NCBI GenBank assembly: GCA_964016885.1
Contig: OZ024745.1
Coordinates: 61,380,001-61,444,000, forward strand
DNA: 64,000 bases
Reading direction: 5' to 3'
From: Eledone cirrhosa
Taxonomy: Eukaryota
The position numbers were made by a program, and so were the translations under genes. This document shows positions 19,076-57,089 of the stretch, piece by piece; position 1 is the first letter of the stretch, and each line of letters starts with the position of its first letter. The notes beneath the pieces are model-generated. The model worked only from the letters and a program-made list of their open reading frames with translations. It did no database searches and was not told the origin of the DNA.

Positions 19076-20151
19076 CAAGGTTTGTTTCAAAAGTGTGGGT
19101 TCTAATTTTCTTATGTACGGCATGGTAATGCAGCACCTCGTTGCTGTATATAGGTGCGCTGGTTCTGACGTTGGCTGCACGCACATACTTGGTTCAACAT
19201 GATCGTTTGAGTTAGTTGTGGGTTATTGCTGTTTATATACAGACGTATTTATAACCTCTGTTACGTTTGCGATGCAGGTAAATATTGAACAAAACGATAC
19301 GCAATCAAATTGTGTGAAACACAATAAATCAGCCACCAAAACATTTAATTATTTAACATAAGCTTATGGAGATGCCACTCCATCGACAAGTAAGGTTTTT
19401 AAGTGGCAAAAAGCTTTCAAAGTGGGCCGCGAAAATATTGAAGACGAACCTTGTTCTGGAAGGCCAGCCTCGTCAACAAATTATAAAATGTAGAAGTGGC
19501 GTGAGCAGTGATAGCGAAAGATCACCGATTAAGTATTATGATGATTGCAAAAGAAACTGGCTTTGATAAAAATGCAGTTCACATCACATACTTTTAACTG
19601 TCCATTTGCACATGTGCAAGTAGAACACTTTCAATTAGAAAATTTCTGGCGAAGAAAAACATTCCCACTCTTCCACATCCTTCCTACAGCCCAGATCTTT
19701 ACCTCTACCTCTTCCTAAAGTTGAAATCGAAGTTGAAGAGTCATCATTGTGGGAATGTGGAAAACACAAAATATTGTCACCGACGAGCTAAGGACGACAG
19801 AAAATGACTTCCGGCACTGCTACAATCAATAGAAAAACGTTGGAACCACTGTGTGACTTCCCAAAGGTCGTATTTTGAAGAAGATAACTTATAATTTAAT
19901 TGTTTCTACTTTTGGCACAAGGCCAGCAATTACCCAGTACATTACTGATACTTTATTTTATCGACCCCGTAAGGATGAAAGGCAAAGTTGACCTCGGCGG
20001 GATTTGAACTCAGAATGGAAAGGGCCGTAACTCTATGCGCCAAAGCATGGCGTCCGACCCTCTACCGATACTGCCAATCCACATAATTTAATGTACGTCT
20101 AATATACATCTAAATAAAACATAAGTACTCTTACTTTTGAGACAAACCTCG
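19076..20151 (+). mobile_element. Mariner-family DNA transposon relic, internally deleted
   Basis: TIRs caaggtttgtttcaaaagt / acttttgagacaaacctcg with TA on both sides; remnants GRENIEDEPCSGRP, PHPSYSPDL, RWNHCV..YFE. Confidence 0.88.
19900..20082 (-). mobile_element. SINE (18565 family) nested in the mariner
   Basis: Reverse complement of 18565-18765. Confidence 0.88.
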
Positions 20152-20636: not shown

Positions 20637-20686
<50 letters not shown>

Positions 20687-20796
20687 TTAATATGCAAATG
20701 AGATTAATCACCTCATTTACACAGACGAGAAATGTATATATTCTCGCCTGTCTTCTAGTCCAGCAGTCGCAAGCGGGGGGTGAGGTGGGGGGTGGG

Positions 20797-20840
20797 ACCG
20801 TCCTGACGAAGGCCAGTTAAGCCTGAAATGCATAGACGGT
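20797..20840 (+). ncRNA. Type I hammerhead ribozyme, complete core
   Basis: ACCGTC-CTGACGA-AGGC cagttaa GCCT-GAAA-TGCA-TA-GACGGT: 6 bp stem I, 4 bp stem II, palindromic ATGCAT stem III. Confidence 0.9.
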
Positions 20841-20955
20841 TGTCCCCCTTGCTTCTGCTGGACATCACCAGAGGGCGCTAGCCCCCCCCCCCCCCCCAGG
20901 TGTTTGCATAGCTACGTCTTCCTAAAACCGTATTTCCTTGGCGATACGAAATATT

Positions 20956-21004
<49 letters not shown>

Positions 21005-23490: not shown

Positions 23491-23556
23491 TATTTTATCT
23501 GATGAAAGCGCACCATAATTTGCCTTGGTGGCCCTTGAAATATGTATAATAAAATA
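23491..23556 (+). ncRNA. Type I hammerhead ribozyme in ~160 bp TA-flanked insert
   Basis: TATTTTAT-CTGATGA-AAG..CACCA..TGGTG..CTT-GAAA-TATGTA-TA-ATAAAATA; 8 bp stem I. Confidence 0.85.
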
Positions 23557-25557: not shown

Positions 25558-26160
25558 AAACAAACCGAACATTATAATAAATGTTCGGTAAACCCATACG
25601 TACATATATAAATGTGTGCATGTATGTATGTATATACATGCTACTGTACGTCTGAATACATATATGTATCTACGTATACATACTTATATTTAAGTATCAG
25701 CCGTACGAAGAGTGAGAAATGAAATTTCATTTTTTCCATTTATCGTTTTCGCTACGCCCGGCCGACTAACTCACTCGATATGCAAATTAGGCTGCTCAGC
25801 CGTTAATATGCATAAGGAAAGTATATACTTTCAAACGTTAAATCGATTGACAGGAAGGTATACGGTGCTGATGACAGCTAAGAACCTAGAAACTAGTTCA
25901 TCGTTCCTTTGTCAGTGTTGAACAAAAGAGCAACGATGGTTGCCGAACACTGTACGGCTTAATTCGGGCTGTTTGTTTACAAACAAACCGAACATTATGA
26001 TACATGTTCGGTAAACCCATACGTACATATATATATGTGTGCATGTATGTATGTATATACATACTACTGTACGTCTGTATACATATATGTATGTACGTAT
26101 ACATACTTGTATTTAAGTATCAGCCGTACTAAGAGTGAGAAATGAAATTTCATTTTTTCC

Positions 26161-26164
<4 letters not shown>
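25558..26164 (+). mobile_element. Tandem ~1.4-mer of a 423 bp retrozyme-like monomer
   Basis: 25558-25743 repeats at 25981-26164; HHR at 25862-25904; TA-rich repeats on both flanks. Confidence 0.78.
25862..25904 (+). ncRNA. Type I hammerhead ribozyme, weak stem II
   Basis: ACGGTG-CTGATGA-CAG..CTA-GAAA-CTAG-TT-CATCGT; stem I extends via AAGG/CCTT and TGACA/TGTCA; C-A mismatch at base of stem II. Confidence 0.7.
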
Positions 26165-26194
<30 letters not shown>

Positions 26195-34910: not shown

Positions 34911-35715
34911 ATACTTGGGGAGGGTCATATTTGTGTAATATTGCCAGAATTAATAACAGAACACATTCACTGTTTGGTTGGTTTTCGCTTTTCGCTTCTA
35001 TGTCTTTTATATCGGTAATCTAATATACTCGGTCCTCAATGTTGCCATTGACTGACCGACGGTCAAAAATAATACGGATACAATATAGACACAAACACAT
35101 ATATATAGTTTGTCATAAATCTTTCGTTGCACATCTGCAACATCGTCAGTGGTGCTATTGTTTCTTCCTGTTGAATTGTATGGCTACGCCACTTTTATTC
35201 AGTCTGTCTATATATTTATTTATTTATTTGCTTGTTTGTTTATTTTATTTTGTCTTCTTTGCGCATGCGTTTGCGTGTGTGTATAGTGTTTTGTTTGATG
35301 TGTGATGTGTGTTCGTGATTGGGTGACTAATGTGTGTTTATGTGTTTGTTGTTATTGTGCTTGTGTATGTATTTATTTATTTATTTTATTTTATTTTATT
35401 TACTTATTTATACTTCTCTTAGGTCATTGTTGTTTGTTTGGGTGTTGTTGTTATTCCATTCATTCTTTCTGTTTAGTCTTGGTCTTCTAAATTCTATTTC
35501 ACTGGCCTCTCTGATTTGCCCAGCTGCTGGGTCATTTCTATGTTTAGATATTATTCTAATTTCTATGTTGTCTATGTTACCGTCATGTTGTTGTCTGGCA
35601 TGTTCGTATAGTACTGACCCGTTTTTTCGTCCTTTTAGTTCCCCCCAGTGTTGGTCTATCCTTTCACCTATGCTACGAGCTGTCTCACCTATGTATGTTG
35701 TTGTCATGTTTCTGC
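34905..35715 (-). mobile_element. Penelope-like element 3' fragment (GIY-YIG ORF 35408-35707, 3'UTR, HHR 35112-35153)
   Basis: YIGETARSIGERIDQH..SVLYEH..IREASEI..LNRKNEW; CTGACGA-T-GTTGCA gatg TGCAAC-GAAA-GATT-TA-TGAC; shares gaccctcccaa(a)gtataacaata with ~25281-25303. Confidence 0.88.
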
Positions 35716-35724
35716 TATATATAT

Positions 35725-36170
35725 AATTGAAAAAGTGGAGAATAACATGGTCAACAATACAAAAAAAGGAGATTTATTTACAGTCTAACAATTGTTTCAC
35801 TGATAGAGTTGTCTAAAAATCCCTAAACACTGAAAGTAGTGCCACTCAATTTAAAATACATGTTATCTCCATCATATTCTCAGTCTCTGAGGATATGAAG
35901 GAGATAACTTGTATGAGTGGCACTACTTTCAGTGTTTAGCGATATTTAGACAACTCTATCAGTGAAACAATTTTTAGACTGTAAATAAATCTCCTTTTTT
36001 GTACTGTTGACCATGTTATTGTCCACTTTTTCAATTTTATTACTCCAAGATAAACTTACATAGGAATACAGTGAAATCATAAACTCGTCATCCACGTAAA
36101 CCTCTTGTTGAGTCATACAACACCGTACGCTAAAACTATTCACAACCTCTAACGATATTTTGTTATCCTC
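35725..36170 (+). mobile_element. Fold-back insert (arms ~35725-35883 / 35887-36037) with HHR at 35881-35981
   Basis: CAGTCT-CTGAGGA-...CTCTATCAGT-GAAA-CAATT(G/T)-TT-AGACTG. Confidence 0.8.
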
Positions 36171-39748
<3,578 letters not shown>

Positions 39749-39760
39749 TATAACTTTCCA

Positions 39761-42904: not shown

Positions 42905-45900
42905 TTTTTTTTTTTTTTTTCCAAATATAAAAGAGATAATTGGCAATTTAGGTTCTGGAACAAAAAAGATCATTGGCAATAAGGGCAGGGGCCCCAGGTT
43001 ATCACAGCCTGGGCCCGCTCGTCATCGTGCCATTGTAATAGAGCCAAACAAGGCATTTAGTCTTGGCTGCTGGAACGTACGGACGCTGCTTGACAGGGAT
43101 TCCTTGGGGCGTCCTGAACGAAGGACCGCTCTTGTTGCAAAGGAGCTTCGACGTTACGATCTTGACATCGTGGCTTTATCTGAGACGAGGCTAGCTGGAG
43201 ATGGCCATCTTACGGAATTTTGTGGAGAATATACATTCTTCTGGAAAGGAAGAGATGAAGGAACCAGAAGAGAGGCTGGGGTAGGATTTGCTGTTAAGAC
43301 TGTGCTTTTGAACAAATTAGAAGAATTCCCAGTAGGGATTAGTGAGCGTCTTATGTCCATGAGAGTTCCGCTGGACAGGGGAAGATATGCTACCCTGGTG
43401 AGTGTGTATGCTCCAACTATGAGTTCTGTCGATGAGAAAAAGATGTCTTTTGACCATGCCTTGAAAGGTGTTTTAAGAAATATCCCTCAGGCAGACAAAG
43501 TCATCGTGCTTGGTGACTTTAATGCTAGAGTGGGTAGAGATTTTAACACATGGAATGTAATCGGAAGGCATGGGGTGGGAAAGTGTAACAGCAATGGTAT
43601 GCTCCTGCTGCAGATGTGTGAGGAGCTGGATCTGTGTTACCAACACCATGTTCCAACAAAAGAACAAATTCAAGACCACATGGATGCATCCTGCATCTAA
43701 GGAATGGCATCTTTTGGACTACGTCCTAGTCAGGATGCGTGACAGACAGGATGTGCAGTGTGTTCGTGTTCTTCGTGGAGCTGAGTGCTGGACGGACCAC
43801 CGCCTGGTACGCGCAAAAGTGAAACTAATCACTAAACGTAAAATCCGGGCTCCTGGTGTTGCCCTGCCCAAAAGATTGAATGCTGCTCGTCTTAAGGATA
43901 AAAATGTGAAGAGGACATTGGAAGAAGAGATGCAGGCTGCAGATCTTGGTGAGGATTGGCCGACCCTTAAAAAGTCGGTTTATGATGTAGGCAGGCGTGT
44001 TCTGGGATTGGCGCAGAGGAAACATCAGGACTGGTTTGATGAGAATGATGTACATATAGAAGACTTGTTGGCTGATAAGAGGCGTACTCTGTCACGCTAC
44101 TTGACGGCAAAACCACAGGAGAGGAATACGTTGCATGAGGAACTCAGGGATGTAAAATCACGTGTTAGGCGGAGTCTTTCTCAGATGAAGGATCAGTGGT
44201 GGAGTGAGAAGGCTGGTGAGATACAAACTGCGTCTGATTCCAATAACACAAAGCTGTTGCACAGTCTCTTGCGTGAGGTTTATGGACCGTCTTCTTCTCT
44301 GGTGACACCGCTTCGCAGCAAGGATGGCAAAGAACTTCTTCGTGACTCACAAGGAATTCTACGAAGGTGGCGAGAGCACTTTGATGATCTTTTGAATCAG
44401 CCGTCTGTCGTCAGTGAAGATTTCCTCAATCTCATTCCAGAAAGTCCTGTGAAAGTAGCTCTCGCAGAACCTCCGACGCTTGTGGAGGTTGCAGTGGCTA
44501 TTTCGAAGCTGAACAGTGGAAGATCTCCAGGTATGGATGGCATACATGCTGAGCTCCTACAATATGGTGGTGAGAGACTCCTGCAACATCTTCACTCTTT
44601 GTTTGGCAGGATATGGGCTAATGAATCCGTACCTGAGGACTGGAGAGATGCAGTAATGGTGGTCTTGTACAAGGGAAAGGGTAACAGGAACGATTGTGCG
44701 AACTACAGAGGTATATCATTGCTTTCTGTCGTAGGGAAAGTTTTATGTAGGGTGCTTCTGGACCGTCTGCTGACACACATTGCAGATTGTGTTCTTCCTG
44801 AAAGTCAATCTGGTTTTCGTGCTGGACGCGGCACTACTGATATGATCTTCTCAGCTAGACAGCTCCAGGAGAAGTGCATGGAACAAGGCTTGGATCTGTA
44901 TCAGGTTTTTGTCGATCTGACAAAAGCTTTCGATACTGTTAACAGAGATGCATTATGGAAGGTTCTCCAGAAACTTGGTTGCCCTGATAAGTTCCTTGCT
45001 TTAGTTAGGTCTTTCCATGACGACATGAAGGCTTGGGTTAATGTCGGGGGTAACATGTCGGAGCCTATCTCAGTAAAAAATGGAGTGAAGCAGGGGGATA
45101 TTCCAGCACCGACCCTGTTTGCCATATACTTTGCAATGGTTTTCTGTATTGCATTCAGGAATTGCGAGCATGGTGTTTACATCCGATATCGAACCTCAGG
45201 CAGCATATTTAACATCAGGCGCTTTGCTGCGAAGACAAAAGTGTTTACATCAATCATAAGAGACCTCTTGTATGCAGATGATTGCGATCTTGTAACGCAC
45301 ACAGAGAGTGATATGCAGCACATTTTGAATGCATTTTCTGACGCTTGCACTGCCCTAGGTCTGACTGTCAGTCTCAAGAAAACCGTCGTCATGTACCAAC
45401 CTGCCCCAGGTAAGCAGTACACTGAACCAAACATCTATGTGTATGGCAAACGACTTGGAGTGGTTGATCAGTTTGTCTACGTGGGAAGCACTGTCAATCG
45501 ATACAGCAACCTTGACAGTGAAATCTCACTTAGGATTAGGAAAGCAAGTGATGCTTTCGGAAAGCTAGAAAGGCGACTCTGGGATCGGCGAGACATATGC
45601 AGGAGGACAAAGGTAAAGGTGTACAGGGCATGTGTGCTCTCTTGTCTTCTTTATGCCTGCGAGACCTGGGTCACATATCGACACCACCTTAAGCAATTGG
45701 AGCGTTTCCATCAGATGTGTCTCAGACGGATCCATGGCGTTCACTGGAGGAACCACATCAGTGATGTCGAGATTTTGGAAAGCTCTATGTGTGACAGTAT
45801 AGAAGCTCTTGTGCTTAAGCAACGACTCCGTTGGAGTGGTCACCTTGCCAGGATGAAGGATTCTAGAATACCAAAACAACTCTTTTATGGAGAGTTGGTT

Positions 45901-46552
45901 AAAGGAAAACGACCGCCACATAAACCAAAAAAGAGGTATAAGGATTCCTTGAAAGCCTCTCTGAAAGACGCTAACATCTCTGCTGATACATGGGAGAATA
46001 TTGCTGCTGATCGTAATAAATGGAGAAAGACTGTATATGAGGGAAAAGTTGCCTTTGAGGCATCTCGAATCGCATACGAGAAAGTAAAGCGGGATGTGAG
46101 GAAGGCATTGTTGTTGCACTTCCAGACGGCGAGGGTCCTCCTATGGTGCTGACATACGGCGTATGTGCGAGACTCTGCCTAACCAAAGCTGGACTCGAAA
46201 GTCATCTTCGCAGTCATAAAGTAAGACTAGTGGTTGACTACCAGGCTGCTGTTGGAGATGCTACTCATCATGCTTGCCAAACATGTGGTAGAGAATGTAA
46301 ATCAGCAGGAGGGCTCAAGCGACATGCAAAAGTACGCGAACTCCAACCACAGTCGACTATTCCCAGTGAATGTTTTGGTTGCCGACTCTGTGCAAGACAT
46401 TTTAGATCATTGGCTGGGCTAAAAAGCCACATTCGATCGCATCGCTGTTAGTTGCTATCGTGTGTGTGTGTATATATGCTTGTTTGTGCGTGTGTGTGTA
46501 TATATATATATGTATATGTATATTATTATTGTTGTTGTCGTTATTATTATTG

Positions 46553-46831: not shown

Positions 46832-49800
46832 TCAGATATTCAGGACGTATCGGAGGGTTCTTGCTGTTCCAAGCAAGCATGCCTTTTGAAGCGTTCCAAA
46901 AAGCGTGAAGGGGCCGATTTTCTTTAACCATCCCTGGAAACTTTTGGAGATAGTCCCCAGTGCGCCTATGACAATCGGGATCACTTTGACTTCATGGCAG
47001 TTCCAAATCCTTTTCACCTCCCACTTTAGGTCCTGGTATCGGTTAATTTTCTCCCTCTCCTTCTCTTGCACTCTCGTGTCGAACGGGCAGGCCACATCCA
47101 CAATCAGGCACGATCTTTTTTCTTTGTCCACAACCACCAGGTCAGGTCTATTGTGTTCCAGTTTTTTGTCCGTCTGTATCCTAAAATCCCACAGCACCTT
47201 CACCTGATTGTTCTCCATCACCGCCTCTGGCCTATGCTCATACCATTTCTCAGAATGTGGTAAATTGTTTACTTTGCACAGGTGCCAGTGGATCACCCTG
47301 CCCATCACATCGTGTCTCCAGCCCTTATAGTGGGTCTGGGCTAGGTGTTTACACTCGGACACAATGTGAGCCACAGTCTCCTCTCTCTCTCCACAGATCC
47401 TGCACAGTGGGCTAGCCTCCTCCTTGTAGATATGGTGCTTCAACCACTTCGTTTTGAGGGCCTGCTCCTGCGCAGCCATTAGCATTCCTTCTGTAGCCTT
47501 TTTGAGGTCTCCTCTTCTCAACCAGTTCCATGTCTGTGGATCTCTAAATTCAGTTTTCTCAAAGAAGGTACTATGAAGGGATTTTCCCTTAAGGCTGCTC
47601 TTCCTCCTTGATGTTATTTCCTCCTTGGACATCCCCTGGCCTACTGTCCCCTCCTTCAGTACAGTTCTGAGCATTGGCTCCTTACTATAGGTCACGTATT
47701 TGTATAGGTTGTTTTTCTCCATCTGAACACAGTCCTCTATGCTGATAAGACCTCTTCCACCCTCAGATCTCCTTAGGTAGAGTCTATCGACATCACTCCT
47801 CTTGTGGAACATGTTGTAGGTAGTCAATAGCTTCCTAGTCTTCCTATCCATTTCTTTTTGTTCAGCAACATTCCATCTCAGAATTCCCGCACTGTACCTA
47901 ATAATAGACACAGCTCGGGAATTTACTGCGCTTATGGCATTTCTGCTGTTCAGATGTGACTTCAATACGCTCCTTACTCTCCGAATGTATTCAGTTCTTA
48001 ACAATTCCTTCATTTTTTTGTTCTTTATGCCATCAGCCTCCAGAACGCCCAAATACTTGTATCCTTCCTCAGAGTCAATTTCCTTTATCATCTCACCTGT
48101 TGGTATCTGGATCCCGTTACTTCTGCTCAACCTACCCCTCTTCATCACAATGACTCCACATTTACCAATACCAAACTGCATACATATATCACTGCTGAAA
48201 ATACGGACAGTGTCAACAAGCACATCCAACTCCTTCTCACTTTTCCCGAAGAGCTTAAGATCGTCCATGAAGAGGAGGTGATTGATGGTAAGCTCTCCCC
48301 TTCCCAACTTGTATCCTGCTCTCACTTTTCGCAGCATAATGGTCAAGGGCATCAGGGCAAGGACAAACAACAGAGGGGACAGGCTATCTCCCTGGAAGAT
48401 ACCTCTCTTGATCTTCACGCTTCCCAAGGATACTCCAGTTGATGTCAACTCTGTCTCCCAGGACCCCATACTCCTGCCTAGCAACTGTCTGATGTTATCT
48501 GCCACCCTGAAGATCTCCAGGCTTTTGGTGATCCAGGAATGAGGCACCATGTCAAATGCCTTTCTGTAGTCTATCCATCCCATGGCAAGATCAGTGTGTC
48601 TCCTCCTGCAATTCCCCATTACCATCTTATCAACAAGTAACTGGTCCTTTGTACCACGTGACTTCTTTCGGCATCCTTTCTGTTCGTCCGGTAACAAGTT
48701 GTTTGTGTGGAGGTGATGGTAGATTTCCTCAGACACAATGCTCGTCAACAGTTTCCACATTACGGACAGACATGTGATAGGTCTATAGTTGGTAACATCA
48801 TTACCCTTGATTCGGTCTTTCATTATCAGAACTGTGGTACCTTTTGTCAACCACTCTGGCACCTCACCCGACACCAAGCAGTCATTGAACATGGCCGTCA
48901 GCTTCGGGTGGAGGGATGTTAAATGTTTAATCCAATACCCCTGCACACCATCTGGGCCTGGTGATTTCCAGTTGGTTAGTTTTTTGGCCTGCCCCTTAAG
49001 AGTTTCAACTGTGATACTCAAATCAGTTTGTTGTTGTGCCTGCTCACCGATCTCCCTCTGTACTGTCTCAATCCACCCTGCCTGGACATTGTGTCTAACA
49101 TCCTGCTCCCATATTCCTCTCCAGAATGTTTTAGTTTGTTCCGCCCCAGGGATCAAGTCGTTGCCTCTTTCTTTCCCCTCAAGCTGTCCAAACAGCATCT
49201 TCTGGTTGTTGTCGAACATGCGGTTCTGTTTATACTGACTGACTCTGTTCTCGTATCGCCTGATTTTTGCACTCTTTGCTACAATGCGTTGCTTCAATTC
49301 CTCTATGATAATATTTAGCTTTTTACTCCTAGTTTTGTATTTTATTTCCAGTCTATTTTTAGTGCCTATGTTTTTTAGTGTCCCATTCAGTAGTGACTCA
49401 AGCTTTCCTATGTCATTTCTCATTTCCCCGATTTGCCCACTCAGTCGCTTCTTCCACCACGGCTCTGCTCTTTCTTGTCTGTTGTTTCCTCTCGCTTTTA
49501 TACCAAGTAGTTTCCTCACCGTATTTGCTGTTGCTTTGAGGATATTGTTGCACTGGTGAAGGCTCCTCGCCTCAAGGTATGGGATGACTTTGTTTACCTT
49601 AGCTGTTGTTTCTTTTAACTTTTTCCTGTCTACAAATCTTAGGTTCATAGGTCTCCCACTATCATTGTTCAATTCATCTACCACTAAATTTAGGATGTCA
49701 ACCGAATCTTGTCCTAGCCCGTCAGCATTCATCTCCTCAGTGGCCGTATCTCTGTTCCAGGTATTATTTATCTCAGTATTCAGATCATTGTCTGCTTCGG

Positions 49801-50092
49801 GTGGTTCCTCCGTTCTCAGGACCTCTTCACCTTCATTTCCCACTGGCTCGCTTGTCTGGCATACTACACCCGCCATCTCCAAGCCATTCTCTCTGCTCAG
49901 TTCCTCCAGTTCCAGCTCGCTTATCCACCCATTAGTTCTTATTACCCGAGCCTGCCCGGCCAATTTTTGTTCATCTAATTTAAATAAACCAATCTCGTTC
50001 CAGATGTTATGCATCCGTCTCCTGTAGCCCCTCTCCTTGGGGTCACTTTTCAGGTAGCATTGCATAACAGTTCTATTCAATTCTTTCGTCAA
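46832..50092 (-). CDS. Dong/R4-clade RT-REL polyprotein (element ~46757-50360), family C
   Basis: 1086 aa open; WIDYRKAFD, GIFQGDSLSP, FMDDLKL, CRIC..HIVSEC, RHD, RPD..DVACP; 3' end runs into (TAA)n; in-frame upstream ATG 50224 is separated by one stop. Confidence 0.95.
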   Translation of the reverse strand: MTKELNRTVMQCYLKSDPKERGYRRRMHNIWNEIGLFKLDEQKLAGQARVIRTNGWISELELEELSRENGLEMAGVVCQTSEPVGNEGEEVLRTEEPPEADNDLNTEINNTWNRDTATEEMNADGLGQDSVDILNLVVDELNNDSGRPMNLRFVDRKKLKETTAKVNKVIPYLEARSLHQCNNILKATANTVRKLLGIKARGNNRQERAEPWWKKRLSGQIGEMRNDIGKLESLLNGTLKNIGTKNRLEIKYKTRSKKLNIIIEELKQRIVAKSAKIRRYENRVSQYKQNRMFDNNQKMLFGQLEGKERGNDLIPGAEQTKTFWRGIWEQDVRHNVQAGWIETVQREIGEQAQQQTDLSITVETLKGQAKKLTNWKSPGPDGVQGYWIKHLTSLHPKLTAMFNDCLVSGEVPEWLTKGTTVLIMKDRIKGNDVTNYRPITCLSVMWKLLTSIVSEEIYHHLHTNNLLPDEQKGCRKKSRGTKDQLLVDKMVMGNCRRRHTDLAMGWIDYRKAFDMVPHSWITKSLEIFRVADNIRQLLGRSMGSWETELTSTGVSLGSVKIKRGIFQGDSLSPLLFVLALMPLTIMLRKVRAGYKLGRGELTINHLLFMDDLKLFGKSEKELDVLVDTVRIFSSDICMQFGIGKCGVIVMKRGRLSRSNGIQIPTGEMIKEIDSEEGYKYLGVLEADGIKNKKMKELLRTEYIRRVRSVLKSHLNSRNAISAVNSRAVSIIRYSAGILRWNVAEQKEMDRKTRKLLTTYNMFHKRSDVDRLYLRRSEGGRGLISIEDCVQMEKNNLYKYVTYSKEPMLRTVLKEGTVGQGMSKEEITSRRKSSLKGKSLHSTFFEKTEFRDPQTWNWLRRGDLKKATEGMLMAAQEQALKTKWLKHHIYKEEASPLCRICGEREETVAHIVSECKHLAQTHYKGWRHDVMGRVIHWHLCKVNNLPHSEKWYEHRPEAVMENNQVKVLWDFRIQTDKKLEHNRPDLVVVDKEKRSCLIVDVACPFDTRVQEKEREKINRYQDLKWEVKRIWNCHEVKVIPIVIGALGTISKSFQGWLKKIGPFTLFGTLQKACLLGTARTLRYVLNI

Positions 50093-50459
50093 GTTGGTTT
50101 AGGCCCCTTTCCTTCTTCTTCTTCCTCCAACATCAGCAGTATTTGGTTGACAGTCAGGTTCCTGCTGCTGAGCCAGGGGGCACCTGTTGGGTGAGAGTCT
50201 GTCACATGACGTTCTAGTCTCCATTTCACCGTTATTCGAACTGTTTATGTTCGATATTTAAACACTCTTATCGAGGATTGGCGAATGTATGGTTACATAG
50301 CCATCTGTGGATCCGCCATCCAACTTGGCCCTTGTGTGGCATTATCACCACGCTGTATACGAACACACATAAACAAACAAACACACAGGCAGAAAGGGCC
50401 CCAAAAATGAATAAGCATAAGTTTCATTGTAATGTAGTGTTCGAATGTCTGACTTAGTT

Positions 50460-53073: not shown

Positions 53074-53669
53074 GAAAAGGGTAAAGTCTACTGCAAAGAG
53101 ACCCACAGCAGCAACACCACCAACACCATCACCACCCACACCAGCACCACCATCACCACCACCGGCGACAACCCCACCGCCAACAATACCTTCAACACCA
53201 CCACCACAAGCACCAACATCGCAAACACAACAACAAAACACACACACCCAGCAACAACGACAAGAAAATAGCAGAACCACACCCCACCCCCAGAAAAACA
53301 AATGCACGGCAATAAACACACACAACAAGAAACTAATGACTTACATAATTGAACACACAGACATTTCACAACAGGACTACATAATACCAGCACCAATCAA
53401 AACGCCAACTAACATAAGACTGCTAAAAATAGCACAGAAACAATACACAAACATTAAAACGAAATTCCCCAACGCAGTTGGTGATTTCAGGGACCTAGGA
53501 GGAACCATCAATCGAAGAGTATATTCTTAGAAGAGCCGACGACCAGCCGAAGGGACGATTCAATGGTCCCTTCACCAGACGATCAAGTGAAAAGGGATGT
53601 AAAAACCATCCCTCCTCTACCAAAAGTACGGTAAGTGGTCTTTCCCATCTTTTCCACTCTATTTTAAAC

Positions 53670-56600
53670 ATGACCTCACTAAGAATAGGCAGCATAAATG
53701 CGCGTGGCTTGGGGTCGTCATGGAAGCAGGGTCACCTGCTCAACGACCTCAGGTCACTAAACATAGATGTAGTGGCCATCAGCGAGACCAGAATCTCCGA
53801 AGCACGGGCCTTCGCACCGATCTTCGGCGGCTACGATGTATACGCATCTCCCAGCCGTCCTGGATCGGGTGGAGGAGTTGCTGTGCTTTTTCGGAGAGGT
53901 TTGGATCTCGCCATACGGGCCATCTTCCTGGACCCAGAGGGTAAGCTGGTGGTGCTGGACGTGACCAGCGGAGACGGGCAAGCTTTCAGGCTAGTGGCCG
54001 TCTATGCCCCGACAGGAGCAGGGCGGCCTGATTTCTTCCGGCGTCTGGAGACCTTTCTTGGAACGTCCCGCTCTTTAGTGTTAGTGGGCGACTGGAACGG
54101 GATCTTAGATGCACGCTGGGACTGTGTGGGATTAGCGGATAGGGGTGGAGGGTGCAAGAGCCTCCCCAACCTGCTCAGGCGTTTTGAACTGTCTGACAGG
54201 TACCGATTGGATTTCCCGAATGTGCCAATGTGGACTTGGACAAACCGCATAGGGTCATCCAGATCATATCTAGATAGAGTATTTTGTAGGGAAATAGATA
54301 GGTCTAGCATAGGCTGTCCACAATTCAAGATAGTCAGCTACACGGACCACAAATTCGTGACCTGTGTGCTTGACTTAGATAGGCTTCATAGACGAGGACC
54401 CGGCTACTGGAAGCTAAACGCGTCCTTACCAGCGCGCAAGGCCTACAGAGACCGGATTAGCGAACTAGTTAAGCGGGCGTTGACGGGGGCCATCGTCAAC
54501 AACAAGTGGTGGTTTGCTCTGAAAAGAGCGATTAGAATAGAATCGATTAGGTTTAGTAAGGCTTTAGCAATAGAGAAAAATAGAGCAGAGGGAGAACTAG
54601 TTAGAAAATTAGACGAGGCGCTTAGCAAAGGCATTGCGACCGACGTGCTTGCGGCGAAATTGGCCCTTGACCAATTCTTCAATGCAAAGCACGAAGGCTG
54701 CGTTGTCAGAGCTAGGGTGCGTGCTCTCAGACACGAGGGGACGAAAGCCGTTCAATGGGCCCGAGTGGCGGAGGCGCGTCGTGGCAACAAAGCCACGATC
54801 CGGTCTTTGGTGGACCACGACGGGCGCATGCTACTCGACCCCGGGCAAATGTGTGAAGCTTTTCAGCGACACTTCGCTCAGCTGTTCGGGGGCAGCGGGG
54901 GGCCGGGTAGAGGGATGGACTTTAGTGTCTACCTCGACGGACTGCCGCGGCTCTCGGCCACTGAGGCGAAGTGTTGCGAAAAGCCGATAACAGCCGCTGA
55001 AGTACGGGAGGCAATGACTGGCTGCACAAGGGGTAAATCGCCTGGTTTGGATGGTCTGCCCTATGAACTTTACGTACAGATGCCAGACTTGTTCGGAGGC
55101 CTCTTGGCGGACGTCTACTGCAACTGGCAACAGAACGGGAGAATTCCCAGTTCTGTGAGCCGAGGAGCGGTGGCACTGCTGAGAAAGGATCCGAACAAGG
55201 GGGATAACATAGACAATTTCCGGCCCATAACTCTGCTAAACACAGAGTTTAAGATTTTGGCCAAGGTGCTAGCAAAGAGGTTGGCGCTTGTCGTTGGTGG
55301 TCTGGTGGGAGAGGCGCAGACATGCGCCATTCCCGACAGATCCATCCACGACAACCTCCACCTCATGCGATACATCGTAGAGAGGGTAGCTAGGGAACCT
55401 GGCACGGGTGGGTCCTTGATCAATTTAGATCAGTCGAAAGCTTTCGATAGGGTCGACCATCGTTACCTAGCGGCAGTCCTGAGGGCGGCTGGCTTTGGGC
55501 CCGTCTTCAGAGGCTGGATCGCTGCCATGCACAGCGACATCTGCTCTGTAGTGAGAGTGAACGGTCACCTGTCGGAACCGTTCAACATCATGCGCTCGGT
55601 CCGCCAAGGATGTCCCCTCTCGTCCCTCTTGTACGTATTGACTCTCGAGCCATTACTGCACAAACTGGAGACGTTGAGGGGAGTCCCGCGCGAACTAGGA
55701 TGCGGAAGATCCGTGTCAGCATATGCGGACGATGTCACCGTAGTGGTGTCGAACGCCAAACACATCGAGGCGATCGGCACTACACTAAGAGAATACGAAG
55801 CGGTGACAGGAGCAATGATCAACCAGGAAAAGTCAGTGGGCCTGCAGCTCGGCACCTGGAGAGGCAGGTCCATGCCGTCCAACAGCGTCGTCGGGCGCTG
55901 GACGGACGGACCGGTTAAATTGCTAGGGGTCTGGTTCGGTCCGGACCTCCAGACGGACAAAAACTGGGACGAGGTGACGAGCAGGGTGGCTTCTCTCACC
56001 CAGAAATGGGCGGAGAGGAAGCTATCCCTGAAAGGTCGAGCGGAGGTGGCTAACGCGTACATCGCGTCTGTCATCTGCTACCGCCTAACCGTCGTACCTT
56101 GTCCTAAGCCTCGCCTGACTGCGCTGGAGCGTTTGCTCTTTCGCTTTTTGTGGAAGGGACGTGCTCCGATGGTCAGGCGGTCCATCTGTTGTCAACACCC
56201 GCTACGTGGAGGGCTGGGCATGCCGTGGCTGATGATGCGCAGGCACGCGCTCAGGCTACGACATCTCCACCTCTTCCTCGACGGTGATCAGGTGTGGTCG
56301 CCGTTTGCTAGACGCGTTTTTCCCCAGCTCGTTTCCTTGACGGAGCTGCAGTCCTGGGTCAAGCGAAGACCGAGAGGGAGCGCCTGGAGACTGGAATGTC
56401 TTCAGGCGCTCACAGCCCTCGACCAATCGGGCAATGTGATCGGTGGAAACTCCACCTCGGCGTTCTATAGAGGATTAGTGGAGGGGAAGAGCGACGACGT
56501 ACTTGGGGAAACTCTAGGCGTCGACGAAAATCAACTAGCCAATCTCTTCGGAAGAACTTTCGGGCCAGGGCCTATGGACAACTTCCAGAAATCTCTGGCC

Positions 56601-57089
56601 TGGCAGTGCTACCGACGAGCCTTGCCAGTTCGGGATAAACTCTACAGGCATGGAGGTGCCGTCAGCCGGGCATGTCCGAGATGCGCGCAGGGCGACGAAA
56701 CCGTCCTGCACGCACTCGTCCAGTGTCCGAAAATTGCTGACTTGTGGGTTTATGTCGAACACCTGCTGTCGCGTTTAGGACGGATCCGGCTATCATCTGA
56801 GTCCATCGTGAGGATTGCCCCGCCCTCCTCCTTTAGCCGGGAAGGGCAGGCAGTTTTTATCTGCCTGGTGGCCATGGCGAAAGAGATAGTATGGTGGACA
56901 CGTTTGAAAGGGCTGAAGACGAGCACTTACCTCTTCGGTGATGCTCTGATTGACTTTTTCAAATTTCATTTGAAAAGGAAAATCAGAGTAGAGAGGGAAG
57001 TGCTCTCTTCCCAGCATTTTGTTGAAAGATGGGTGAGAGAAGCAAGAATGGCCCGAGTGAATGGGCCTACTCTGAGCATATATCTGTAA
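53670..57089 (+). CDS. Tx1-clade ORF2 (APE endonuclease, RT, C-terminal zinc finger), intact; element 51331-57340
   Basis: SINARGL, VYAP, GDWN, YLDR, TDH, YWKLN, SPGLDGLP, DQSKAFDRVDH, VRQGCPLS, AYADD, CPRC..HALVQC; (ATT)n on both flanks. Confidence 0.96.
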   Translation: MTSLRIGSINARGLGSSWKQGHLLNDLRSLNIDVVAISETRISEARAFAPIFGGYDVYASPSRPGSGGGVAVLFRRGLDLAIRAIFLDPEGKLVVLDVTSGDGQAFRLVAVYAPTGAGRPDFFRRLETFLGTSRSLVLVGDWNGILDARWDCVGLADRGGGCKSLPNLLRRFELSDRYRLDFPNVPMWTWTNRIGSSRSYLDRVFCREIDRSSIGCPQFKIVSYTDHKFVTCVLDLDRLHRRGPGYWKLNASLPARKAYRDRISELVKRALTGAIVNNKWWFALKRAIRIESIRFSKALAIEKNRAEGELVRKLDEALSKGIATDVLAAKLALDQFFNAKHEGCVVRARVRALRHEGTKAVQWARVAEARRGNKATIRSLVDHDGRMLLDPGQMCEAFQRHFAQLFGGSGGPGRGMDFSVYLDGLPRLSATEAKCCEKPITAAEVREAMTGCTRGKSPGLDGLPYELYVQMPDLFGGLLADVYCNWQQNGRIPSSVSRGAVALLRKDPNKGDNIDNFRPITLLNTEFKILAKVLAKRLALVVGGLVGEAQTCAIPDRSIHDNLHLMRYIVERVAREPGTGGSLINLDQSKAFDRVDHRYLAAVLRAAGFGPVFRGWIAAMHSDICSVVRVNGHLSEPFNIMRSVRQGCPLSSLLYVLTLEPLLHKLETLRGVPRELGCGRSVSAYADDVTVVVSNAKHIEAIGTTLREYEAVTGAMINQEKSVGLQLGTWRGRSMPSNSVVGRWTDGPVKLLGVWFGPDLQTDKNWDEVTSRVASLTQKWAERKLSLKGRAEVANAYIASVICYRLTVVPCPKPRLTALERLLFRFLWKGRAPMVRRSICCQHPLRGGLGMPWLMMRRHALRLRHLHLFLDGDQVWSPFARRVFPQLVSLTELQSWVKRRPRGSAWRLECLQALTALDQSGNVIGGNSTSAFYRGLVEGKSDDVLGETLGVDENQLANLFGRTFGPGPMDNFQKSLAWQCYRRALPVRDKLYRHGGAVSRACPRCAQGDETVLHALVQCPKIADLWVYVEHLLSRLGRIRLSSESIVRIAPPSSFSREGQAVFICLVAMAKEIVWWTRLKGLKTSTYLFGDALIDFFKFHLKRKIRVEREVLSSQHFVERWVREARMARVNGPTLSIYL

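Follow-up and report, generated by a model that had tools for sequence, protein, structure and literature searches.

The window examined here – a 64-kb stretch (G000:C5:61380001-61444000) of the 3.0-Gb assembly of Eledone cirrhosa – contains many microsatellites and LINE-type ORFs, including long LINE-type reverse transcriptase (RT) frames of 863, 1088, and 1196 aa at 43561-46152, 46832-50098, and 53499-57089. At 20685..20964 on the forward strand it carries a 5′-truncated copy, about 0.8 of a unit, of a retrozyme family that we refer to as family A, with (AT)n runs on both sides. The left part of the insertion target is an (AT)22 microsatellite (20641..20684), and the right part, also an (AT)n microsatellite (20951..20985), overlaps the AT-rich end of the element.

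Several features are ordered along the same strand of this copy. An extended octamer box of 12 bp (20691..20702), at -73 relative to a predicted +1, is identical to the boxes of a host U6 gene (L031, at -76) and the host MRP gene (L077, at -77). It is followed by TCACC (20708..20712) at -57, the position of TCAG in host U1/U2 genes and with a weak matrix score, and by a TATA box with a leading G (20734..20741) inside a hairpin loop, the G being 42 nt after the box start (45-47 in the host). The predicted +1 (20765) is a C|A step 31 nt after the TATA G, placed by that distance and not by mapped 5′ ends. A rod (20758..20863; arm pairs 20758/20855 and 20769/20848), which in the window copy has a private 12-nt G-rich expansion, surrounds the hammerhead and includes a weak match (20841..20851) to the distal motif of host snRNA genes. 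Further to the right are a putative CTCF-like word (20866..20880), a poly-C run of variable length, and a hairpin with an end site, site A (20929..20964). The CTCF-like word is present in every family A unit and is ~93% conserved. Hairpins are formed at 20696/20712, 20726/20741, and 20929/20944. The motifs named in an earlier note on this DNA – the octamer (20692), TCACC (20708), TATATA (20735), the rod arms, and three hairpins – are thus all present where it had read them.

The hammerhead (20798..20839, +) is minimal and of type I, comprising stem I (20798-20802/20835-20839), CUGACGA (20803), stem II (20810-20824), GAAA (20825), and a palindromic helix III (20828-20833), with a predicted cut at 20834|20835. 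It has the CUGANGA, GAAA, and UH core and the three helices, with helix I open, that define the type, and helix III consists of one pair and a palindromic loop. The complete hammerhead described in the earlier note is borne out, since the full core is present and its 42 nt recur as 268 exact copies in the genome as compared with none for a reversed control. Rfam hammerhead models gave no match to family A, or to its sister family C, at gathering score or at E<=10, and the Rfam matches returned for family A sequence were discarded as microsatellite or G/C-run artefacts; the motif is identified instead by its conserved core and by stems that are compensatory between families. Helix III is palindromic in families A, B, and C (see below) despite differing in sequence, and palindromic helices III have been described for dimeric hammerheads (PMC4209133). 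Only one of nine Xenopus hammerhead dimers cleaved in vitro (10.64898/2026.07.22.740005), so the predicted self-cleavage of family A is not a given.

A hammerhead descriptor finds three sites within the window. Besides that of family A, two AT-rich type I hammerhead motifs lie at 23499 (+) and 39527 (-), in (TA)n-flanked insertions in which no box was seen, the second with an inverted partial arm (39300-39750).

Family A and its sister families

Family A is dispersed, and its unit is circularly permuted, because other copies run past both ends of the window copy into a linker of 70 nt. The natural unit measures 322-334 nt, with a minimal type I hammerhead, a GC content of 0.43-0.45, and no ORF, and the window copy lacks a segment of ~70 nt with the tail and T-run. 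The ~280-nt monomer of the earlier note is therefore too short, and its apparent start at the octamer is an effect of truncation, as the natural unit continues upstream.

A search at the DNA level produced 2,173 first-look candidates; the 40 that were scored contained, in addition to the window, 69 matches at 80-98%. The box and TATA alone occur at 19,976 genome sites as compared with 11 in the control, and the first 100 listed comprise 92 of family C, seven of family A, and one C-like site, from which family A would number very roughly 1,400.

Two intact tandem hammerheads, 325-334 nt apart, are present at four of seven loci checked (L005, L006, L146, and L211), and family A can therefore be classed by sequence as a non-LTR retrozyme, of which the window copy on its own is a solo derivative. 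Such retrozymes are recognized by a non-coding unit of 150-400 nt, GC below 50%, and a self-paired circle (PMC7229834, 10.64898/2026.07.22.740005). Because it has a single hammerhead, the window copy is unable to give a unit-length circle. A search for tandem arrays, as the earlier note proposed, recovers short ones of one to three units; long arrays are absent from 100 listed of the 268 exact sites and from the 40 scored, with a maximum of ~3 units. When six natural cut-to-cut units from five loci were folded as circles, the hammerhead stems formed and z-scores ranged from -3.7 to -8.0, with none of 60 shuffles as good. The description 'highly structured' thus suits these circular units and not the window copy (z -1.75; 12 of 200 shuffles as good). 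The retrozyme-like nature proposed in the same note is sustained by the tandem hammerheads at four loci and the structured circular unit, and an insertion footprint typical of Penelope-like elements (PLEs) had been missed.

When the box, the TATA, and the hammerhead core were combined in one search pattern, 84 genome sites and one control site matched. Among 30 sites examined, 23 belong to an old family, B (L149-L177, 23 loci), and seven to family C. Family B has a unit of ~350 nt with a T5-6 run directly behind the hammerhead, and a box-TATA spacing of 46 in 16 of 21 copies, in a sample for which the query itself demanded 44-51. The full hammerhead descriptor passes five of seven C copies and three of 23 B copies, and the majority line of B shows the whole core. 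Family C forms arrays of 3-6 units, nearly every one with an intact hammerhead; units are 430-610 nt including a microsatellite (L209, at G000:C1:5540300-5544200, L212, and L213), and two of three arrays have an inverted end. A family C copy is also present in the window (25678..26165, +), with its box at 25779-25790, TATA G at 25821, hammerhead at ~25862-25905, and 3′ end just past the T-run into (TA)n. Family C is far more abundant than A, and RNA work would be better directed at it. One C-like copy (G000:C1:5415183), diverged and with its hammerhead decayed, was considered as a fourth family and rejected. Family A is otherwise unalignable with B or C; the strongest local matches, none with E below 0.15, cover the box, the TATA, and a word of 11 nt in end site A.

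Promoter motifs and host snRNA genes

Host upstream DNA was compared from 16 U6, four U6atac, one MRP, one RNase P, nine U1, and four U2 loci. Five host genes – three U6, one U6atac, and MRP – share the extended octamer box, located between -76 and -78, and TATA at -30; this set was chosen from 21 U6/U6atac/MRP loci, leaving out 16 that comprise one near-duplicate, SINE-disrupted array copies, and apparent retrocopies. None of the 13 U1/U2 loci has the octamer box, and their eight distinct promoters have TCAG at -56 to -58 (8/8) and AATTA[AG] at -89..-91 (7/8), the latter absent from family A.

These host promoters have other features of note. A distal motif at -251 to -282 is common to the genes (L031-L062, L073, L077, and L148), and U1/U2 promoters also have a TATA-like word at -30. 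The RNase P RNA gene (L148, G000:C24:12936134) is U1/U2-like upstream, with TCAG, two distal motifs, and no U6 box, hinting that it may be transcribed by Pol II and that its Rfam 5′ boundary may be off. Within the U6 array on C19 (L037 and L042) a SINE replaces the proximal box just 5′ of the TATA in some units, and U6/U6atac copies without a promoter (L063-L072 and L074-L076), several beside (TA)n, are apparent retrocopies. The U6-type promoters are usable for U6-driven guide RNA vectors in Eledone cirrhosa.

The family A box, with 12 of 12 positions shared with L031 and L077, scores 17.0 bits, and TATA at -30 with a leading G and a Y|R start are as in host U6-type genes, with +1 positioned from the TATA. 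A matrix of the five genes places the family A copy (20692) first in the window at 25.3 bits and the C copy (25780) second at 25.1, the next site scoring 20.5; the host genes themselves score 20-25 bits in leave-one-out comparison. The Y|R step at the predicted +1 is present in 60 of 79 A segments (58 C|A and two T|A), 19 of 20 in C, and 12 of 21 in B. The earlier note's reading of TCACC as a PSE is not upheld: only TCA at -57 matches the U1/U2 motif, and the matrix score of -3.3 bits, as compared with 5.8-13 in host genes, is no better than in U6-type genes. Across families, TCA[CG] at -56/-57 is found in 62 of 79 A, 14 of 21 B, and 17 of 20 C segments (C largely from three arrays), with scores of -3.3, 0.8, and -0.1, respectively, against the same host range, and the box shifts between families. 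The best distal-motif match in the A unit is weak (10.7 bits) and was noticed post hoc; it lies at -254..-264 of the next unit in tandem copies, where the host range is -250 to -282. The motif is absent from B and C, and was rejected as a feature common to the retrozyme families. When set beside host U1, U2, and U6 genes, the idea of an snRNA-type promoter thus largely survives, in the form of a putative U6-type box and TATA that match U6/U6atac/MRP and recur in two more hammerhead families, with TCACC a weak match to a U1/U2-type PSE.

The foremost alternative is that family A is a PLE-mobilized retrozyme in which box and TATA do not function as a promoter, but are either ancestral relics, intact only in the old family B, or parts of RNA hairpins, with transcription arising by host read-through. 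Box-TATA spacing is central to this question, as it measures 42 in A (71 of 79 segments), 46 in B, and 41 in C, as compared with 45-47 in the host, and is tightly kept in insects (PMC1761439). Because the A spacing is 3-5 bp short, the A motif set cannot be called a canonical U6 promoter; yet the most amplified family is C (92 of the first 100 sites), whose spacing is the shortest. Nor do 5′ ends of A copies peak at the predicted +1 (nine ends within +/-5 nt, p 0.28; 0-30 nt bin, p 0.49). Conservation of the octamer and TATA among copies, proposed in the earlier note as a check, is indeed found (0.97 and 0.96) but is uninformative, because the spacer is equally conserved (0.97) and the whole unit is ~95% conserved; between families that cannot otherwise be aligned, the box and TATA are nonetheless what survives. 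Both motifs lie inside RNA hairpins, the box with a complementary word at 20903, and RNA structure could therefore keep them, although TCA[CG] keeps its distance from the TATA in all three families while the box moves. We therefore regard box and TATA without promoter function as unlikely.

Insertion footprint and proposed mechanism

The insertion footprint was examined in 70 stretches (an initial 30 and 40 more taken in list order) from 100 listed exact-core sites, and thus selected for an intact core, leaving 66 loci after removal of four duplicates. These comprise 43 head-to-head inverted pairs, 18 single arms, and five more complex arrangements. Of 111 outer 3′ ends, 97 fall at two sites ~40 nt apart: 43 belong to site A and 54 to site B, which is the T-run and lies further 3′. 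The other 14 are elsewhere. (TA)n or (CA)n adjoins 88 of the 111, and 27 of the 43 inverted pairs have one A-type and one B-type end. Among 122 arms, 80 are longer than 225 nt and 32 longer than one unit, the longest being 581 nt. Target-site duplications are not readable inside (TA)n. In contigs from sequencing runs X1-X3 of a single sample, possibly the one from which the assembly derives, the (AT)n ends at both sites of locus L029 are loose; these contigs have no bearing on RNA. Described PLE insertions combine partial tandem copies with inverted 5′ copies, have a tail of 30-40 bp on one side, and are biased towards microsatellites (PMC8557442). With their tandems, inverted arm, one-sided tail, and microsatellite target – all of the marks of this footprint – family A insertions look Penelope-like.

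The genome contains a young, abundant PLE family with RT and GIY-YIG domains (10,437 candidates; 150 scored at 88-100%), and all 13 copies that reach its end adjoin (TA)n. Thirty loci of this family have no alignable sequence in common with A, B, or C, apart from a locus with an inserted A copy, and no homology of A to the 3′ ends of two other PLEs is visible. In the 3′ UTR of the abundant PLE (L180-L208), 29 of 30 loci contain the distal motif of host snRNA genes, and there is also a hammerhead variant that has U in place of C3. The CX2-5CxxC before GIY-YIG makes this PLE Neptune/Nematis-like (PMC8557442). A PLE 3′ fragment is present in the window (35000-35773, -), with a GIY-YIG-like frame and then a hammerhead-like motif near 35150; related fragments occur in L082 and L089.

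An identical footprint would be expected if family A copies were solo pseudo-LTRs (pLTRs) of an autonomous PLE, with a promoter native to the PLE and a ribozyme that processes PLE mRNA rather than making circles. It is known that pLTRs carry promoters and hammerheads (PMC6765202), and Xenopus retrozymes are pLTR relatives (10.64898/2026.07.22.740005). However, in the family A loci examined (1.5-kb or 0.7-kb flanks) it is another unit that lies upstream of the unit, no attached RT and GIY-YIG ORF being present in these flanks, and the GIY-YIG/RT fragments near four A insertions proved to be separate neighbours and not part of the element. With the octamer box also absent from 29 of 30 loci of the abundant PLE, we consider pLTRs a decidedly improbable explanation. 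A linear SINE-like Pol III RNA, running from +1 to the T6 run (~220 nt) and serving as transposition template with no circle, would account for the 54 of 111 outer 3′ ends at the T-run, for arms extending from about +1 to the T-run (L081, L085, and L141), and for C copies that also end just past a T-rich run, but can scarcely be credited given the many arms longer than 225 nt or one unit, the lack of a 5′-end peak at +1, the T5-6 run directly behind the B hammerhead, and the lack of T6 in two of three C arrays.

We therefore favour, with a probability of about 0.7, the interpretation that family A is a non-autonomous animal non-LTR retrozyme inserted by PLE proteins, whose ~330-nt unit carries its own candidate snRNA-type promoter. 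The parts of this that are read directly from the genome are the dispersed family, the tandems of 1-3 units, the intact hammerhead, the PLE-type footprint, and the U6-type box and TATA. In a tandem copy, the box and TATA would start transcription ~35 nt upstream of the hammerhead, and the RNA would read through into the next unit. Two hammerheads could then pair via the palindromic helix III for dimeric cleavage (PMC4209133), releasing a unit-length RNA that would include the promoter for the next round and would probably be closed into a circle by ligation. The reverse transcriptase/GIY-YIG endonuclease of a PLE would prime this RNA at (TA)n via the AT-rich sites A or B, and copy 0.3-1.8 units (up to ~3), in many cases adding a second arm in inverted orientation. 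The window copy would be a dead-end product, which may be transcribed and cut once and yields no unit.

Because 80 of 122 arms are longer than 225 nt and 32 exceed a unit, the templates would include the promoter region, and transcription must therefore pass the T6 run in A and the T5-6 run behind the B hammerhead. Given this need for read-through, the precedent in newt (PMC2220036, PMC6765202), and a TCA[CG] located where U1/U2 genes have TCAG, Pol II in snRNA mode is a somewhat better than even choice of polymerase. The box, the TATA, and the 3′ ends at the T-run point to leaky Pol III, which we consider rather below even odds.

Comparison with known systems

Hammerhead repeats with a promoter in the unit are already known, the precedent being newt satellite 2, which reportedly has an octamer and PSE promoter. 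What is new here, as judged from genome sequence, is that the box matches host U6-type genes, that it recurs across three families and ~20,000 sites, and that the insertions directly show a PLE footprint. Neither retrozymes of cephalopods nor PLE-related repeats with U6-type promoters came to light in the literature outside Repbase entries, supplements, and subscription journals, and the main text of a 2026 Octopus vulgaris repeat annotation has no occurrence of "ribozyme" or "snRNA".

Non-LTR retrozymes are reported to accumulate as monomer RNA in both linear and circular form, at high levels in every tissue examined and "atypical for retroelements", with a mobilizing partner only proposed; in the text of that study that is available, no retrozyme promoter is described, the word occurring twice and both times for T7 (PMC7229834). 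The family A promoter candidate may explain how such elements stay switched on. Both the promoter and the mobilizing partner are now testable, with a host-matched promoter candidate in three families and a footprint pointing to PLE proteins. A tentative generalization, which we would put at slightly less than an even chance, is that animal retrozymes are each a "promoter-in-a-circle", in which a host gene-external snRNA promoter – a hybrid of U6 box and U1/U2 core – has been internalized and permuted into the inherited unit by the hammerhead. If true, this would explain constitutive high retrozyme expression, unite newt satellite 2 with the mollusc case, and mean that ~20,000 dispersed snRNA-type promoter cassettes in the genome were spread by Penelope-like proteins. 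Set against a few dozen snRNA loci, ~20,000 box and TATA cassettes might bind SNAPc, TBP, and POU factors or deplete them by titration.

PLEs and their non-autonomous derivatives resemble family A in 5′ truncation, partial tandems, inverted 5′ arms, the one-sided 30-40-bp tail, and (TA)n targeting (PMC8557442, 10.64898/2026.07.22.740005), whereas A has no ORF and no sequence match to the PLE family compared. The vertebrate case for a PLE connection, as set out in the preprint text available, comes from co-occurrence and pLTR homology and not from insertion footprints (10.64898/2026.07.22.740005). The TRIMp3 elements Cassandra, Helenus, and Ajax are likewise non-autonomous retroelements with a small-RNA-gene promoter inside the repeat, and hence inherited, but they are LTR elements with internal tRNA/5S promoters, a PBS, and a PPT, and the available text describes no role for a hammerhead (PMC10886601).

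The schistosome repeats Sm-alpha and Sj-alpha share with family A a promoter that precedes the hammerhead and falls in the 3′ part of the cut monomer, and therefore only tandem copies would propagate; they are reported to be Pol III SINE-like (PMC6765202), whereas the A promoter candidate belongs with the gene-external snRNA promoters. The non-LTR retrozymes of metazoans (coral, mussel, and axolotl; PMC7229834) are similar to A in having a type I hammerhead with a weak palindromic helix III, a unit of 170-400 nt with GC below 50%, tandem copies, no ORF, and a self-paired circular fold that leaves the ribozyme free. Family A, known here from DNA alone, is unlike them in consisting mostly of dispersed insertions of 1-2 units with inverted arms and no long arrays. 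Newt satellite 2 (PMC2220036, PMC6765202) is also a hammerhead repeat of ~330 nt with an internal snRNA-type promoter, which uses Pol II in newt; family A differs in that its box matches host U6/U6atac/MRP and not U1/U2, in having a TATA, and in being one of three families with the same layout.
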